Shown here piece after piece: positions 53,195 to 62,932 of a DNA stretch of 64,000 bases. Origin of the DNA: an uncultured Phycisphaerales bacterium (lineage in GTDB: Bacteria > Planctomycetota > Phycisphaerae > Tepidisphaerales > Tepidisphaeraceae); the NCBI GenBank assembly GCA_963758525.1, contig CAVWVQ010000003.1, forward strand, positions 1,152,001-1,216,000, written 5' to 3'. Under the pieces are notes generated by a model. It did no database searches. It saw nothing but the letters and a program-made list of their open reading frames with translations, and was not told the origin of the DNA. The position numbers were made by a program, and so were the translations under genes. Numbering within the stretch: the stretch's first letter is position 1; each line of letters starts with the position of its first letter.

Positions 53195-53216
53195 CAATAC
53201 GCCTTCTGTCTCGACT

Positions 53217-53317
53217 TCCCCCTCCCCTGGTACTTCGGGGAGGGCAGGGGTGGGGGCGCTGAGTGCTCGCCAGCGAGCCCCCACCCTAACCCTCCCCCGG
53301 AGTACCAGGGGAGGGGA
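53217..53317. repeat. Paired CCCTCCCC-type palindromes
   Basis: CCCCTCCCCTGGTACTTCGGGGAGGG and CCCTCCCCCGGAGTACCAGGGGAGGGG in inverted orientation. Confidence 0.85.
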
Positions 53318-53370
53318 CAAGAGCTTGGGGCGCTCGACACTGTCGGGCCGGGGGCCGTTTGCTGATGCAT

Positions 53371-54909: not shown

Positions 54910-56145
54910 TCAATGCAGTGCGAGGAACGTGGTATAGGCGGCGACATCCTGAACCGGGCCCGAATATGTTGTCGTGGCCGCGTTGGAATCGGAATAGCCG
55001 GCGCCGATGACCATGACGGTTGAATTCGCGCCGGGGGCGTACGTGGCGTTGGCCATGTCGTTCCCAGGCGCCAGGTTCCAGATGTTGCCGCTCGAATTGG
55101 TTCCGAGGCGGTAAATCCAGCCGTTGGTGTTGCCGGCATTTGAGTCGTTGGCGATGACGACAAAAGCGCCGTCGGCGAGGCATCCGAGATTGCTCTGGCC
55201 GGCCACGTCGGCGAACGTGAATTGCTGCTGCGTCGACGTGTTCGTGACAGTTGTCACAGTCAGCGGGCGGGCTTCCAGCGAGGGAATGCCGTTCGTCCGG
55301 GCCGCCAGATCGTTGGAATCGTAGAAGCTGCGGTTCCGCGCCTGCACGCCGATCAGAATCACCTGCACGTACGGCTGCCCATTGACCTGGCGGTACAACG
55401 GGATCCACGCATAGCGCGGATCGCTGGGCAAAATCAGGTTCCCGCTGATGAGCGGCCAGAGCGTGGTATTGGTCATCACCGGCTCGCCCGCCACCGCGGT
55501 TGGCCCGATCGGATGAACGTACCCGTCAGGCATCGTCGCGCTGGCGACCGCGCCGGCGGGTGTGTACCAGTAGCTCTGCGTGTTGTATTTCGCCAGGTAC
55601 GAAACCCCGCCCTTGGCGATCGTCGCGGCTGTCGTCTCTTCACTGGTGGCCTGCGTCTGCTTCAGTGCCACTGGAAAAATCGCCGCGATCAGGATGAAAC
55701 CGATGCCGAGAATCAGCACCGCGAAGAGAATTTCGGTAAAGGTGAATCCGCGGCGAGTGCGCGATCTGAGCGGCAAAGACGAAGAGCCGCGAAGGCGCCC
55801 GCCACGGCCGGCAAGCTGCGGCGCGAAGGCAGACGCGAAGCGGGGGGAAGGAACATTTCCGCGCAGTTGAGAAATCTCCGGAGCGACATGACTGGTTCGC
55901 TTCTCTCGTTTTTTCGTCACACGGTGCACTTTGAGAATGCACGACGGGGTCAAACCGTTCACGAAAAGTGCGCGGCGACTCTCCCAATTAGTGCTTCTTC
56001 TTCGCGTCTGCCTTCGCGCCGCAGCTTGCCGGCCGTGGCGGGCGCCTTCGCGGCTCTTCGCATTTTGCAGTTCGGCCGAACGGTGCGCCGCCGCCGGCGT
56101 TTCACGACGGGTGCTGGTGCGAAGTTGATGATTGCTGCCGGGCAT
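54910..56145 (-). CDS. Prepilin-type protein, GspI/PilV-like, with a repeat-containing leader
   Basis: RRG-FTFTEILFAV...AIFP; ATG at 56145 follows GGAG and the upstream stop, frame open for 133 aa to the cleavage site. Confidence 0.75.
   Translation of the reverse strand: MPGSNHQLRTSTRRETPAAAHRSAELQNAKSREGARHGRQAAARRQTRRRSTNWESRRALFVNGLTPSCILKVHRVTKKREKRTSHVAPEISQLRGNVPSPRFASAFAPQLAGRGGRLRGSSSLPLRSRTRRGFTFTEILFAVLILGIGFILIAAIFPVALKQTQATSEETTAATIAKGGVSYLAKYNTQSYWYTPAGAVASATMPDGYVHPIGPTAVAGEPVMTNTTLWPLISGNLILPSDPRYAWIPLYRQVNGQPYVQVILIGVQARNRSFYDSNDLAARTNGIPSLEARPLTVTTVTNTSTQQQFTFADVAGQSNLGCLADGAFVVIANDSNAGNTNGWIYRLGTNSSGNIWNLAPGNDMANATYAPGANSTVMVIGAGYSDSNAATTTYSGPVQDVAAYTTFLALH
55780..56060. 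repeat. Perfect 61-bp inverted repeat with 159-bp spacer
   Basis: 55780-55840 is the exact reverse complement of 56000-56060. Confidence 0.92.
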
Positions 56146-56152
56146 TCTGGTG

Positions 56153-57361
56153 TTACTCCGCGCGAATGAGCGTGCCGTTGTAGCGGTTGATGAGGATTGG
56201 AGCGCTGTTGGTGTCGAGCCAGACTTCCTCGTCGGCCTCGGTGGGAGGCGACGCCGCGGGCGTGCTCGCCACGCCGTAGCCGTTCGGTACACCAGTCGGA
56301 TCGAGCAGGTCATCTCCGATCGTTCCGCCGAAGTTGTTGAACGCTTCACGGTCAAAAAGCACGAACCCGAATTGGGAGGAAAGAGCCGCGGGCGGCGTGT
56401 AATCGACCTGCGGCGTCGGCATGACGGCGTTGGACGGAATCCCGAAAATATATTGGGCAAGGTTCGACGGGCTTGTCGAGTTGGACTGATGCAGCTTCAG
56501 GCCGTAGGTCTTGCTGGTGAGCCGGCCGTTCCCGTCGAAGAGAATCGCGCCGCCAATGCGCACCGCGGCATTGCCGCCGGCGCTGGTGATGGTGTCCGCG
56601 GCGCCGGGAGACGGGAGCGGGTTGAAGCCGATGTAGCGGTCCGGCAGGATTTGGGCGGTGTTCCAGTAGGTCGCATTGGGAGGTTCATTGGCGGTGCTGG
56701 ATACATTGGTAAGCTTGCAACTATAGAAGCTTCCGCCCACCTGCACGAGCGCGTTCTGTGCATAGGTCTGTCCCGCGGCCCAGGCGGGCGGCACCACGCC
56801 TCCATTGTTGATGACCTGCAGCCCGATCCCCGATGGCAGTTGCAGAAATTCACGGTCGGGAACGATGTCGAGATAGTACGTGGCCGGAGTCGCGGTCAGC
56901 GGGGACTCGTCGCTCGAGTCGAGCGGCACGGATTGAACGATCGACGCATTGATGCGATCGGTTGCCGGATCAAGCCAGAAGAGCACGCCGTGCACTTCCT
57001 GCAGGCCGACCGCCTCCTCGCGCGCCCGCGTGATCAGCGCCGACAGCGTGTTGTACCCCGCGTCGATGCTCCGCGAGCCAGTGAGGCCGCGGATCGCCGG
57101 GATCGCCATCGCGACCAGGAGGATGATGATTCCGATGACGACCACCATTTCCGTCAGCGTGAAGGCGCGGGAAGGCACGAAGGCACGGACGCACGGAGGC
57201 ACGGAGGGTGACGAAGGGTCTGGGGAAGGCACGGAGGCACGGAGGCACGGAGGCACGGAGGGTGAGGAAGGGTGAGGACGCGAAGAGAAGCGAAGCGACA
57301 AAAATCCCCTTCCTTCCCTTCGTGCCTTGGTGCCTTCGTGCGTTTGTGCCTGCGTTTCCAT
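56153..57361 (-). CDS. Prepilin-type protein, GspH/FimT-like, with a repeat-containing leader
   Basis: SRA-FTLTEMVVVIGII...RAREEA; ILFDGNGRL; ATG 2 nt after the upstream stop. Confidence 0.8.
   Translation of the reverse strand: METQAQTHEGTKARREGRGFLSLRFSSRPHPSSPSVPPCLRASVPSPDPSSPSVPPCVRAFVPSRAFTLTEMVVVIGIIILLVAMAIPAIRGLTGSRSIDAGYNTLSALITRAREEAVGLQEVHGVLFWLDPATDRINASIVQSVPLDSSDESPLTATPATYYLDIVPDREFLQLPSGIGLQVINNGGVVPPAWAAGQTYAQNALVQVGGSFYSCKLTNVSSTANEPPNATYWNTAQILPDRYIGFNPLPSPGAADTITSAGGNAAVRIGGAILFDGNGRLTSKTYGLKLHQSNSTSPSNLAQYIFGIPSNAVMPTPQVDYTPPAALSSQFGFVLFDREAFNNFGGTIGDDLLDPTGVPNGYGVASTPAASPPTEADEEVWLDTNSAPILINRYNGTLIRAE
57170..57345. repeat. GGCACGGA/GGCACGAA octamer element inside a prepilin leader
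   Basis: Same architecture as 47795-47965, including GGGAAGGAAGGGGATTTTTGT. Confidence 0.85.
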
Positions 57362-58094: not shown

Positions 58095-58240
58095 AGGTGA
58101 TTGGTGATTGGAACGTGACGGAAACGCAGAAAATTGCACGGCAGGAGGCGATTTGTCACGTTCCACGTTCCAATCACCTCTTCGGGGCTTTGTCACGTTC
58201 CACGTTCCAATCACCTCTTCGGGGCACGTTTCAATCACCT
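58095..58240. repeat. CACGTTC/CAATCAC heptamer element with a 37-bp tandem duplication
   Basis: 58152-58188 equals 58189-58225; inverted arm at ~58095-58118. Confidence 0.85.
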
Positions 58241-59203
58241 TTTTCCGACGCCCTCCCGCGGCTCGGGTCCCTTCTCATAACTGTACAAATTGTCATCCTG
58301 CGTCAGATAACGCCGGTCGGGGCCGGCGGAAAAGAAGAATGAGCGGTCCTGGGGGGCGATTCCGATCTCACGATGCATCGACGGCATGAACACAATCGGC
58401 GAGCCCCAGGCGTCGCTGAGCGTCGCCTCGTTGTAGATCGAATCAGGCAGGCCGCCGAACAGGTCGGAGCCGCTGCCGGCTTCAAGGCGCAATGCCGCGA
58501 CGAAGTCGCGATTGTTCTCGAACGCCCGCTGCTGCAGCGTTGCCTCATTGAGATGATCGGGGGCATTGGCAAACGGCGCGATCGCGGGCGTCCGGCCGTC
58601 GTGATGCAGCCGGTATTGGGCCAGCAGCACGTCGCACTGATAGAGCAACTGCTTGGTGAGCTTGACGGACGAGTCGTTGCGCACGTATCGCGCCAGATCG
58701 ACCATCAGCCCCAGCACAATCACCAGGCCGGCCACAGTCGTGAGCATTTCCAGGAGGGTGAAGCCGCGGCGGCTGGGCTTGACGTCCCCTGCTGCGCCCT
58801 CTCCCGGTACTCCGGGAGAGGGTTGGGGTGAGGGTGATTTCGAGGTCGAAAGTCTCTCGCACTCGCGAAGGATTTCTTCCAGCACCGGGTCCAGGTGCAG
58901 TCGTACATCCGTGTTGGTGAAACGGATGACGTGCGATCCGCCACGCACCAGGCGCTGTGTGCTGCGAGCGTCGTACTCAGCCTGCTCGGCATGAGAGTCT
59001 CCATCCAGCTCAACGATGAGCCCGGCTTGCGCAGTAAAAATCGGCGATGTAGGGCCGTTGCGGCGACTGACGCTTGAACTTGAATCCATCAAGCTGCCGG
59101 TCGCGCAGACGTTTCCACAAAATCGATTCGGCCGGCGCGGCGCGTGCCGCATCTGGCGGACCCGCTCGAGAAGATCGGCATGTGTGAGGGAATTCTTCGG
59201 CAC
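58235..59203 (-). CDS. GspG-like prepilin with an N-terminal DUF559 (Vsr-like nuclease) domain in its leader
   Basis: LIVELDGDSH...YDAR...VIRFTN...VLEEI, then PSPQPSPGVPGEG, then RRG-FTLLEML, DAWGSPI, SAGPD; AESILWKRLRDRQLDGFKFKRQ and PYIADFYC occur in a shifted frame ~59035-59135. Confidence 0.75.
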   Translation of the reverse strand: MPKNSLTHADLLERVRQMRHAPRRPNRFCGNVCATGSLMDSSSSVSRRNGPTSPIFTAQAGLIVELDGDSHAEQAEYDARSTQRLVRGGSHVIRFTNTDVRLHLDPVLEEILRECERLSTSKSPSPQPSPGVPGEGAAGDVKPSRRGFTLLEMLTTVAGLVIVLGLMVDLARYVRNDSSVKLTKQLLYQCDVLLAQYRLHHDGRTPAIAPFANAPDHLNEATLQQRAFENNRDFVAALRLEAGSGSDLFGGLPDSIYNEATLSDAWGSPIVFMPSMHREIGIAPQDRSFFFSAGPDRRYLTQDDNLYSYEKGPEPREGVGKR

Positions 59204-59231
59204 GGGGGCGGTTTTGTACGCTCGAAAGGCA

Positions 59232-59270
59232 CCCTCACCCTAACCCTCTCCCCGAGTACCGGGAGAGGGG
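59232..59270. repeat. CCCTCTCCC palindrome flanking DUF559 (partner at 58797-58835)
   Basis: CCCTCACCCTAACCCTCTCCCCGAGTACCGGGAGAGGG, inverted relative to CCCTCTCCCGGTACTCCGGGAGAGGGTTGGGGTGAGGG. Confidence 0.88.
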
Positions 59271-59293: not shown

Positions 59294-60151
59294 TCACTGA
59301 TTGAAATTGGTTACGTCGTCGGTCTTCCCGTTGGAATCGTAGCCCCAGAGTTCATCCGAGCCGGCGCTCCAGAGGAGGTAGGGCGCTGTCGTCGCGGGAG
59401 TTTCACCAAGCGTCGGATCAATTGCGCCATCGGGCACACCAGGCGACGCGGTGCTGGTGGTGTCGCCGAGGATTCGCTGCATGTCGACAAGCAGAAATGG
59501 ATTGTTTGTCTTGATGCTGTTCTGAGAATAATCGTACATCGGAACCACCGTGGCAGGCGTTGGTGCCAGGGGTGTTTGCCCTACGAAAGCGCCCGCAGCA
59601 TTAATACTGGCAACCGGGTTCGCCCGGAAGTAAAGGTACGGTGTGCCGCGGACATCGTTGATCGTCGAGTCCAAATTGCTGGTCCCGGTGATGCCGAATT
59701 TATCCGGCGGAATGTACGGACCGTAGGTTTGTCCCTGTGTTCCGCGGATGCGGAAGCCGGGACCGTCGGCGCCGTCTCCGCTGATGGTCAGCGGCGCGGC
59801 CGACGGAGGAGCTGGAGTCGATATTGCCGGGCCCGGAGCAACCAGCGCCCAGCAGAGCGCGACGGCTCCCAGTCGATCTTTCTCAGTTCCGAGTATCGTG
59901 ACCGGATTGTTCACGGACATATCCACCGGCGGATAGTCCTTGAAATCCTTCCGATACTCTTCGAGCCCCTGCGCAATGACCTGCAGATCGAGTGCGATTC
60001 GCGTGCGCGTTGCGCTGCGGCGAGCCCGCAGCAGCACCGGCAGCGTGATGCCGATGACGATGATAATAATAGTGACCGACACCAGCAGCTCGATCAGCGT
60101 AAAGCCGTTGCGCTGGCGCAATCGGAAGTTAATTGCTGGAGATGATGTCAT
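59294..60151 (-). CDS. GspG-like prepilin
   Basis: RNG-FTLIELLVSV, EYRKDFKDYPP, WSAGSD...DDV. Confidence 0.85.
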   Translation of the reverse strand: MTSSPAINFRLRQRNGFTLIELLVSVTIIIIVIGITLPVLLRARRSATRTRIALDLQVIAQGLEEYRKDFKDYPPVDMSVNNPVTILGTEKDRLGAVALCWALVAPGPAISTPAPPSAAPLTISGDGADGPGFRIRGTQGQTYGPYIPPDKFGITGTSNLDSTINDVRGTPYLYFRANPVASINAAGAFVGQTPLAPTPATVVPMYDYSQNSIKTNNPFLLVDMQRILGDTTSTASPGVPDGAIDPTLGETPATTAPYLLWSAGSDELWGYDSNGKTDDVTNFNQ

Positions 60152-61265
60152 CTTTGGTTCCGAAGATTCGATCAGCTCCAGCGGAGATCAGCAGGAACGT
60201 GTCTTTGCCCTTGGGGGTGGGCTCGCCCGTTGCCGGAAGGGTGAAGGCCGGGTTGGCAATGTAAACGTCCGCATAATCGTACGTATACGTAGTGCCCGTC
60301 GGCGGATTCGGACTTGGGAGCGGAAAATCCGTCTGGCTCACGCCGGTCGTGACGGTGGGCGACGGTACCGCGACGGGGCTAAAAGAGTAGGGGAACAAAT
60401 GCTGGAAATTGTATTGAAAGCTGGCCGCCGTGCCCGTTCCTTCGTACAGCATTTGGGTGGCGCCGACGCGGGCTCGCAGGTAGAGGATCGGGCCGAAATT
60501 GTAGTTTCCATTGCCGCTGATGGGGCTGCCGGGCGGGCCGGTGATGTTTCCGGGAATGTGATCGAGATATTCCGGGATGTACGAGTCGCCCGTCCCAAAT
60601 TCCTGGTATCCGTGCGTCGGATCGCCCGGTGGCAATTCCTCCGGCTTGGGGGTGAAGTATGCGGTTGTCTGCTTCTGCATATTTAGCAGTACATTGAGCA
60701 CCTGCGGCCCCTTGCCGATGGACGTGAAATCATAAAGCCAATTTTGCACCGCTGGAGGCGTCGCCGTCGTATAGGAGAGATAGACTCCGCCGCTTAAACC
60801 AAGAACGAGATTCTCACTTGAGGTGATATCTGTTACCGCTGGAGTACCGGTGATGTTCTCCAGCAGTGCGAACGTGGGGGGGATTTGCGTTGGCGGAACC
60901 GGCGCACTCCCCGCGACTGCGGCCGCGGCGGCCGCGTCAATGTCGTTTTGCGCAATCGGCCCCGGATACGCACGAAAATCCTGATAATACGCCTGGCACG
61001 CGGCGCCGATCGTCGCCATCTCCTGCTTGGTGCTGGTGACGAACGCGGCCTTGCGGACGCTGGCGACGACCGGGAGCAGAATCCCGATGAGGATCACGAT
61101 GATGCCGATGGTGACCAGCAATTCGATGAGGGTAAAACCGGGGCGGGAAAGGCACGAAGGCACGGAGGCACGAAGACACGAAGGGAAGGAAGGGGATTGG
61201 GATGGGAAAGGCGCGGAGGCACGCGGAGAAGAACGGTGAAGCGACGGACGATCGCGCAACGTCAT
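60129..61265 (-). CDS. GspG-like prepilin with octamer repeat in its leader
   Basis: PSCLRASVPSCLSRPG-FTLIELLVTIGII, YYQDFRAYP, ISAGAD...DDI. Confidence 0.85.
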   Translation of the reverse strand: MTLRDRPSLHRSSPRASAPFPSQSPSFPSCLRASVPSCLSRPGFTLIELLVTIGIIVILIGILLPVVASVRKAAFVTSTKQEMATIGAACQAYYQDFRAYPGPIAQNDIDAAAAAAVAGSAPVPPTQIPPTFALLENITGTPAVTDITSSENLVLGLSGGVYLSYTTATPPAVQNWLYDFTSIGKGPQVLNVLLNMQKQTTAYFTPKPEELPPGDPTHGYQEFGTGDSYIPEYLDHIPGNITGPPGSPISGNGNYNFGPILYLRARVGATQMLYEGTGTAASFQYNFQHLFPYSFSPVAVPSPTVTTGVSQTDFPLPSPNPPTGTTYTYDYADVYIANPAFTLPATGEPTPKGKDTFLLISAGADRIFGTKDDIISSN

Positions 61266-62639: not shown

Positions 62640-62932
62640 AAACCAGAATGACGAAACCAGCATCCCGAATCAAACAATCAAACCAGAATGACGAAACCAG
62701 AAAGCAGAATCAAACCAGAATGACGAATGACCGAATGAAGAGTGAACGCACAATTGGCGGCCTCGCCCCCCGGTTGTGGAGCCCCGATCGCCGCCTGGGT
62801 CGGCTGCACTGTAGATTGCGGTCTCTTCATTCGGTCATTCGTCATTCTGGTTTCTGGTTTCGTCATTCGGACTTCCGCCCGAAGCGGCGGCGTCACTCTG
62901 ATTTCGAACTTCGTCATTCGGACTTCCGCCCG
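62640..62932. repeat. GAATGAC/AAACCAG heptamer inverted-repeat element
   Basis: Perfect 31-bp inverted repeat 62712-62742/62823-62853 plus extra tandem units. Confidence 0.88.

Follow-up and report, generated by a model that had tools for sequence, protein, structure and literature searches.

The window, the whole stretch of 64,000 nucleotides that was analysed, contains a run of seven genes with prepilin motifs, which follows the genes for a GspF/PilC platform protein and a secretion ATPase. One member of this run is a minus-strand open reading frame (ORF) at 59203-58235, which starts with GTG and encodes 322 amino acids comprising a DUF559 domain and a pseudopilin. The DUF559 domain, which has the Vsr fold, occupies 58850-59203 (minus strand) and likely starts at this GTG; as assembled, its codons from 59135 to 59030 are in another frame. 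The domain is bracketed by two inverted hairpin motifs of three runs each, a proximal arm at 59232-59269 (minus strand) and a distal arm, the inverted copy, at 58797-58834 (plus strand). The proximal arm consists of a hairpin with a 9-bp stem and a TTA loop and of a third G-run, resembling BoxC/TMECO with a first loop of 8 nt. A TAG at 59242, inside this arm, closes the pilin frame on the upstream side, and the frame is free of stops from there to 58235 on the minus strand. The distal hairpin is translated in the pilin frame as PSPQPSPGVPGEG, followed by RRG|FTLLEML, with a predicted prepilin-peptidase site between Gly-1 and Phe+1 and Glu at +5 (58763-58768, minus strand; class III signal peptide definition). 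The mature pseudopilin of 176 amino acids (58235-58765, minus strand) is predicted to have a GspG-like fold. Upstream lies another pseudopilin gene (59294-60151, minus strand), the stop of which overlaps a GTG. Translational coupling from this gene was considered and rejected, as the frame of the overlapping GTG stops in the proximal arm (59237) and never reaches the pilin.

An earlier note on this DNA had described a DUF559 domain between inverted palindromes, stop-free read-through of the distal palindrome into the pilin, a segment moved out of frame and the lack of an ATG between domain and cleavage site. All four descriptions agreed with our analysis: the domain matched PF04480 between the two arms, the frame was open from 59242 to 58235, the codons from 59135 to 59030 were displaced and matched PF04480 separately, and downstream of 58873 no in-frame ATG, GTG, TTG, CTG or ATN preceded the cleavage site. 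Two in-frame GTG codons are, however, present within the DUF559 domain, at 58948 and 58885.

The hairpin motif CCCTCTCCC matched nine times in the window, where 0.5 matches were expected, and the genome contains 247 hairpin matches. Forty-nine inward-facing pairs of hairpins were found genome-wide; 34 were short doublets of one type, and 22 measured exactly 114 bp. The window's pair was the sole one of the 49 with a gene-bearing interior of 397 nt, which contains nothing but DUF559. The doublets, which are empty copies, share their arms and ends with it, and the window cassette, ∼475 bp long, is the filled form of the 114-bp doublet. The earlier note had suggested that the cassette may be the autonomous partner of the empty copies. 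The arms carry three G/C runs in the order of the BoxC/TMECO consensus. The strict BoxC consensus with a first loop of 3-6 nt had no match in the genome, and 76 matches were obtained when a loop of up to 10 nt was allowed. A second DUF559 cassette, which is intact and has variant arms (L001, G000:C3:1103259-1103738), likewise reads through its distal hairpin. It is a rival candidate for the partner of the empty copies, which may be served by either cassette. No direct repeat that could represent a target-site duplication was visible by eye at the flanks of the window cassette, and in DNA alignments of the leaders with close orthologs no empty site was close enough to fix the insertion ends. 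The patchy distribution of the cassette suggests that it is mobile.

The wider DUF559 family was surveyed at 50 loci, 47 of which could be aligned with the query. Hairpins were present on both sides of the domain at 45 of these 47 loci, and the remaining two had little flanking sequence. Of the loci that have a distal hairpin, the 28 with the best scores were counted by hand, leaving out 20 loci that had been chosen partly for their long frames, and 13 of the 28 cassettes showed read-through of this hairpin; read-through is thus a generic trait of the cassette. Judging by their source names, DUF559 relatives in the databases were fused to LysRS, RuvC, MurB, Phe hydroxylase and other proteins. 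The nearest relatives of the window's domain (P0160 and P0186, 73-74% identity) are fused ahead of the signal-peptide-like segment of a protein with a prenyltransferase fold. Searches of the open-access literature yielded no description of a DUF559-hairpin cassette or of a DUF559-prepilin fusion.

The PF04480 profile matched residues 57-115 of the ORF with an E-value of 1e-12 and 48 bits (cut-off 20.6), and the shifted piece at 59025-59138 matched profile positions 15-52 with an E-value of 5e-10, both pieces scoring above the cut-off. A match to PRK09767 was also obtained. When the domain was read through with an X at each break, it scored 129 bits on the family profile, compared to 132-138 bits for intact relatives. 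It kept 17 of the 20 near-invariant columns, including D, E-x-D-G, H and D, and retained the acidic residues and the His of E-x-D-G-x-x-H and the flanking motifs. Across 45 family members the departures number 0-1, compared to three here. In the D-x-x-R motif the window has a Ser codon (58961-58963, minus strand) in place of the Arg, whereas the 296 aligned database rows had Arg in 294 cases, Lys in two and Ser in none. This change lies away from any GCGC site and may be real. If the two frame breaks described below are assembly errors, the actual gene would encode a whole domain that is one invariant Arg short and may be weakened.

The pseudopilin part shows Gly-1|Phe+1, Glu+5 and a hydrophobic stretch. 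It scored 15.3 bits against TIGR02532, just below the cut-off of 16.3, while its ortholog P0122 passed with 21.1 bits; no PF07963 match was found in the window ORF. The mature part was predicted to fold with a pLDDT of 84 and a helix from residue 2 to 54. Structure comparison gave 3g20 as the best match to the GspG-like head (Z 8.6, rmsd 3.9 Å, 105 aligned residues), and the top 19 VIA rows were pilins or a pilus-like structure, although the E-value in Foldseek was only 0.2. The pilin is conserved in its family and under purifying selection in comparison with the ortholog at L228 (dN 0.086, dS 0.67, dN/dS 0.13). The genome also encodes a PilD-like ORF of 418 amino acids. Translation would begin at GTG 59203, at GTG 58885 or at both, giving a leader of about 145-146 or of 40 residues, respectively. 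The latter GTG (58883-58885, minus strand) is the nearest in-frame start, lies in the last DUF559 helix and is in register with the called start of the orthologs P0122 and P0354.

The pilin was present in 22 of 24 genomes of the same family. Three loci with short flanks were dropped from the ortholog count, L235 and L255 look like one organism, and L016 belongs to G004, an unpublished genome that is itself counted among the 22. At none of the 52 ortholog loci with enough upstream DNA was a DUF559 domain found within 1.2 kb upstream, and the insertion is lineage-specific. The nearest start was within 26 codons at 41 of these loci and at 27-39 codons at nine, and two had none. At L228, where the pilin is 85% identical, an empty doublet lies in frame within an open leader of 123 codons. 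P0122 and P0354 (87%) have a leader of 37 residues that aligns with the window without gaps from GTG 58885 onwards, that is, over the 3' end of the cassette. Ahead of the hairpin, the P0122 leader shared 7 of 17 residues with the window, compared to at most 5 for 100 doublet readings, a comparison made on protein only, and it is probably an eroded cassette end. The presence of filled, probably eroded and empty forms in one and the same leader is consistent with a decaying passenger; L228, P0122 and P0354 fall into one 90% cluster and are not independent of each other.

Recurrence was investigated by a pattern scan of GTDB for a hairpin followed by a prepilin motif, which covered hairpins up to 33 nt from the cleavage site and returned at least 119 stretches. 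Among the 118 distinct matches listed, 96 (97 with another de-duplication) were true prepilins by hydrophobicity, and they came from many phyla. The hairpin was open in the pilin frame in all 97 listed true prepilins, compared to 64 and 68 in the two alternative frames. At 45 nt further upstream the pilin frame of the matches listed was open in 92 of 95, compared to 43 and 35. For the listed matches that were not pilins, the frame was open through the hairpin in 16 of 22. In 67 of the 96 listed prepilins no ATG, GTG or TTG followed the hairpin. Intact DUF559-prepilin fusions, for which the earlier note had proposed a search, do occur elsewhere. One of the 96 hairpin-preceded prepilins listed is such a fusion (L164/P0356, Patescibacteria, behind pilC), with no ATG between domain and cleavage site, and a protein search added P0002 and P0006 (2 of 120). 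These three intact fusions are on mutually unrelated pilins. In P0002 and P0006 the hairpin is followed by an internal Met, and such a Met is the called start of P0351; in P0357, a member of the L164 cluster, the hairpin is in another frame and the parts are unfused.

Further searches, including a profile search with the four fusions and a junction search with the window ORF, gave no new DUF559-prepilin fusion among 82, 148 and 4 proteins. When the L164 junction was compared with 1.84 billion representatives, the 150 best matches all left the pilin part uncovered. A pattern search within the phylum found a hairpin before a prepilin in one of 400 other genomes, and in the present genome one of 66 prepilin motifs had a hairpin within 300 nt despite the 247 hairpin copies. 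At L138, a DUF559 gene lies 637 nt upstream of a hairpin-preceded prepilin and out of frame with it.

Other repeats were observed in the same operon. A second family of repeats, with 158 copies of GGCACGGAGGCAC and 199 copies of a variant, is present at 57174-57260 and 61151-61171, where its copies sit in open frames ahead of the prepilin sites 57166 and 61139. The spacers 58103-58215 and 62860-62920 are filled by two more dispersed repeat families, with 74 and 79 copies genome-wide, and the orthologous leaders in genomes G001 and G002 contain other repeat-like inserts. At ∼53200-53320 a variant hairpin is in frame ahead of an ORF of 1378 amino acids, which we take to be PilX/PilY-like, and ATG codons follow the hairpin. 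A prepilin motif at 55749-56460 has 249 open codons upstream, which represent either an exceptionally long leader or another ORF that escaped recognition.

We propose that a DUF559 cassette bounded by hairpins, which is likely selfish and mobile, has inserted into a type II secretion/type IV pilus-like operon, between two of its pseudopilin genes. The cassette would break the link to the upstream gene and provide the downstream pilin with its start and its leader. The likely reason for its tolerance is that prepilin peptidase would remove everything before Gly-1, so that an insertion in the leader would survive as long as it leaves a start codon and an uninterrupted frame. Selection would act on the open pilin frame and not on the nuclease; the leader would be removed by PilD, and any nuclease freed would be a by-product. 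With moderate confidence we regard a selfish cassette tolerated in a PilD-removed leader as the probable explanation of the locus. Since the same arrangement occurs in three unrelated bacteria, it is likely that pilin leaders offer the cassette a place to land without harm and that no purposeful device for nuclease release is involved. The analysis did not support the idea that the fusion is special or selected: 13 of 28 family cassettes read through the distal hairpin, DUF559 is commonly fused to unrelated proteins, none of the 52 ortholog loci has the domain and the internal GTG offers the pilin a separate start.

A somewhat unlikely alternative is that the fusion is an open frame on paper, the pilin being translated from GTG 58885 with its 40-residue leader, and the nuclease being a decaying and little-translated passenger with real or artefactual frameshifts. 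This would fit the start called in the same register for P0122 and P0354, the nine of 52 orthologs with their nearest start at 27-39 codons, and the internal Met of P0002 and P0006 together with the start called for P0351 and the unfused P0357. The lost invariant Arg and the departures in 3 of 20 near-invariant columns, compared to 0-1 in 45 family members, also point in this direction. However, no stop separates the two parts, so that any initiation at the cassette start yields the fusion; the acidic residues and the His of E-x-D-G-x-x-H and the flanking motifs are kept, and L164 has no ATG from the domain to the cleavage site.

For the two frame breaks, the earlier note had left a choice between sequencing error and inactivation. 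Error is favoured by our analysis and inactivation is disfavoured. Compared with the homolog P0160, the first break (59135-59143, minus strand), where two GCGC sites adjoin, lacks one base, and the second (59029-59032, minus strand), at a GCGC site, lacks two bases as judged by homolog length. A comparison with a same-genus genome revealed 23 frame breaks among 107 conserved ORFs (135 kb) of the assembly. Twenty of these were located, leaving out one likely duplicate and two of low identity; 18 of the 20 were within 9 nt of a GCGC, compared to a background of 19% (P 1e-11), and 15 were losses of one or two bases. As the GCGC position and the loss of one or two bases match this signature of the assembly, both breaks are probably assembly errors. 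Two breaks among only five GCGC sites are nevertheless unusual even here (∼1.5% per site, ∼0.2% for two). A soil sequencing run matched 9% of the sequence words, and no contig spanned 58865-59592. DNA methylation is listed among the sources of nanopore error (PMC11649196) and may underlie the GCGC errors. The genome's one C5 methyltransferase (L226, G000:C3:1631395-1635042) is split over two frames and adjoins another methyltransferase-like ORF; no link between this enzyme and GCGC was found. It is unlikely that the nuclease was inactivated in vivo and that selection then favoured the second break because it brought the pilin back into frame. Such a history would explain why the breaks lie within ∼110 nt, net in frame and with no stop between them, and would agree with the independent loss of the invariant Arg; against it stand the many breaks elsewhere in the assembly with the same signature, and GTG 58885, downstream of both breaks, makes restoring the frame unnecessary.

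It is very improbable that the cassette targets or exploits prepilin leaders, with PilD freeing an active nuclease that spreads the hairpins in an intein-like manner, or with the host tying nuclease release to pilus assembly: four unrelated fusions including the window's, the in-frame hairpins in listed prepilin leaders of many phyla and the signal-peptide-like segment behind the closest DUF559 relatives (73-74%) would agree with it, but fusions are rare (1 of 96 listed, 2 of 120 and none new among 82, 148 and 4 proteins), hairpins precede prepilins in 1 of 66 cases here and in a single one of 400 further genomes from the phylum, a free-standing cassette needs no release, and the window copy has lost an invariant Arg.

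Returning to a tolerated selfish cassette, the findings would link an orphan nuclease family, DUF559, to a long-known orphan repeat. L164, P0002 and P0006 represent a natural test of whether a folded domain as long as 130-200 residues can be removed by PilD, a question relevant to prepilin targeting and to the use of PilD as a scarless tag-removing protease. Cassette and hairpin insertions would also account for prepilin leaders of unusual length and for annotated starts that are wrong. About one fifth of the conserved genes in the present assembly (G000) are broken by a loss of one or two bases at GCGC; other frameshifted genes there may share this artefact, and its "pseudogenes" need care. 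More speculatively, DUF559-BoxC cassettes could constitute an undescribed selfish class for which PilD-erased leaders are a safe haven, the host protein remaining unscarred and an active enzyme being freed to spread hairpins, like an intein without a splicing domain.

In inteins, a nuclease passenger is made harmless at the protein level, and in REPtrons (RAYT/TnpA-REP) an enzyme gene is flanked by its own dispersed palindromes. The window cassette differs from the former in having no splicing domain (Pfam and NCBIfam scans of the ORF found no Hint domain), its removal being left to a host protease, and from the latter in that DUF559 is not an HUH tyrosine transposase. With the Ssn nucleases and their SRM/NTS repeats (PMC11893778) it shares a small nuclease gene, a hairpin repeat on both sides and hundreds of dispersed copies. 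Ssn proteins are, however, GIY-YIG nucleases whose activity on the repeat was shown, while the present system has a PD-(D/E)XK/Vsr-fold DUF559 domain and a different repeat; no GIY-YIG domain was found in the window ORF, for which PF04480 was the sole family match. DUF559, COG2852 and PDB 3hrl have been placed in one group with Vsr and the homing endonuclease of a group I intron (PMC3424549). The window copy agrees with this group in its PF04480 and PRK09767 matches and its motif residues and departs from it in being hairpin-bounded, fused to a prepilin, away from any cytosine methyltransferase and without the invariant Arg.

Type 4 pilins with class III signal peptides and the GspG/PulG pseudopilins (PMC10191384, PMC4471445) share with the window's pseudopilin Gly-1, Phe+1, Glu+5, the hydrophobic helix, a GspG-like head and an operon with PilC/GspF and an ATPase. 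According to the same sources, prepilin leaders are cytoplasmic and of variable length, and the peptidase that cleaves them after Gly works without any further component; reported class III leaders have 6-26 residues, whereas the leader described here would have 40 or ∼146. The arms share with BoxC/PIT/TMECO, an intrastrand-triplex motif (PMC4666352), the layout CCCTCNCCC-loop-GGGNGAGGG-N3-GGGNGAGGG, and the second loop of the proximal arm, TTA, is that of TMECO type A. The first loop of the consensus has 3-6 nt, compared to 8 nt in the window's arm. That paper reports TMECO in E. coli only between genes, and its main text contains neither "endonuclease" nor "DUF559". A parallel to the translated hairpin is provided by the Rickettsia palindromic elements and intragenic MITEs (PMC10969869), where unrelated host proteins likewise have a palindrome translated in frame, either within them or in front of them, and the 114-bp doublet, a multiple of three that is read through at L228, resembles them in this respect. 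Here, by contrast, a filled form with a nuclease gene exists, and the insertion lies in a part of the protein that is predicted to be cut off, while the Rickettsia elements are kept in the folded protein.
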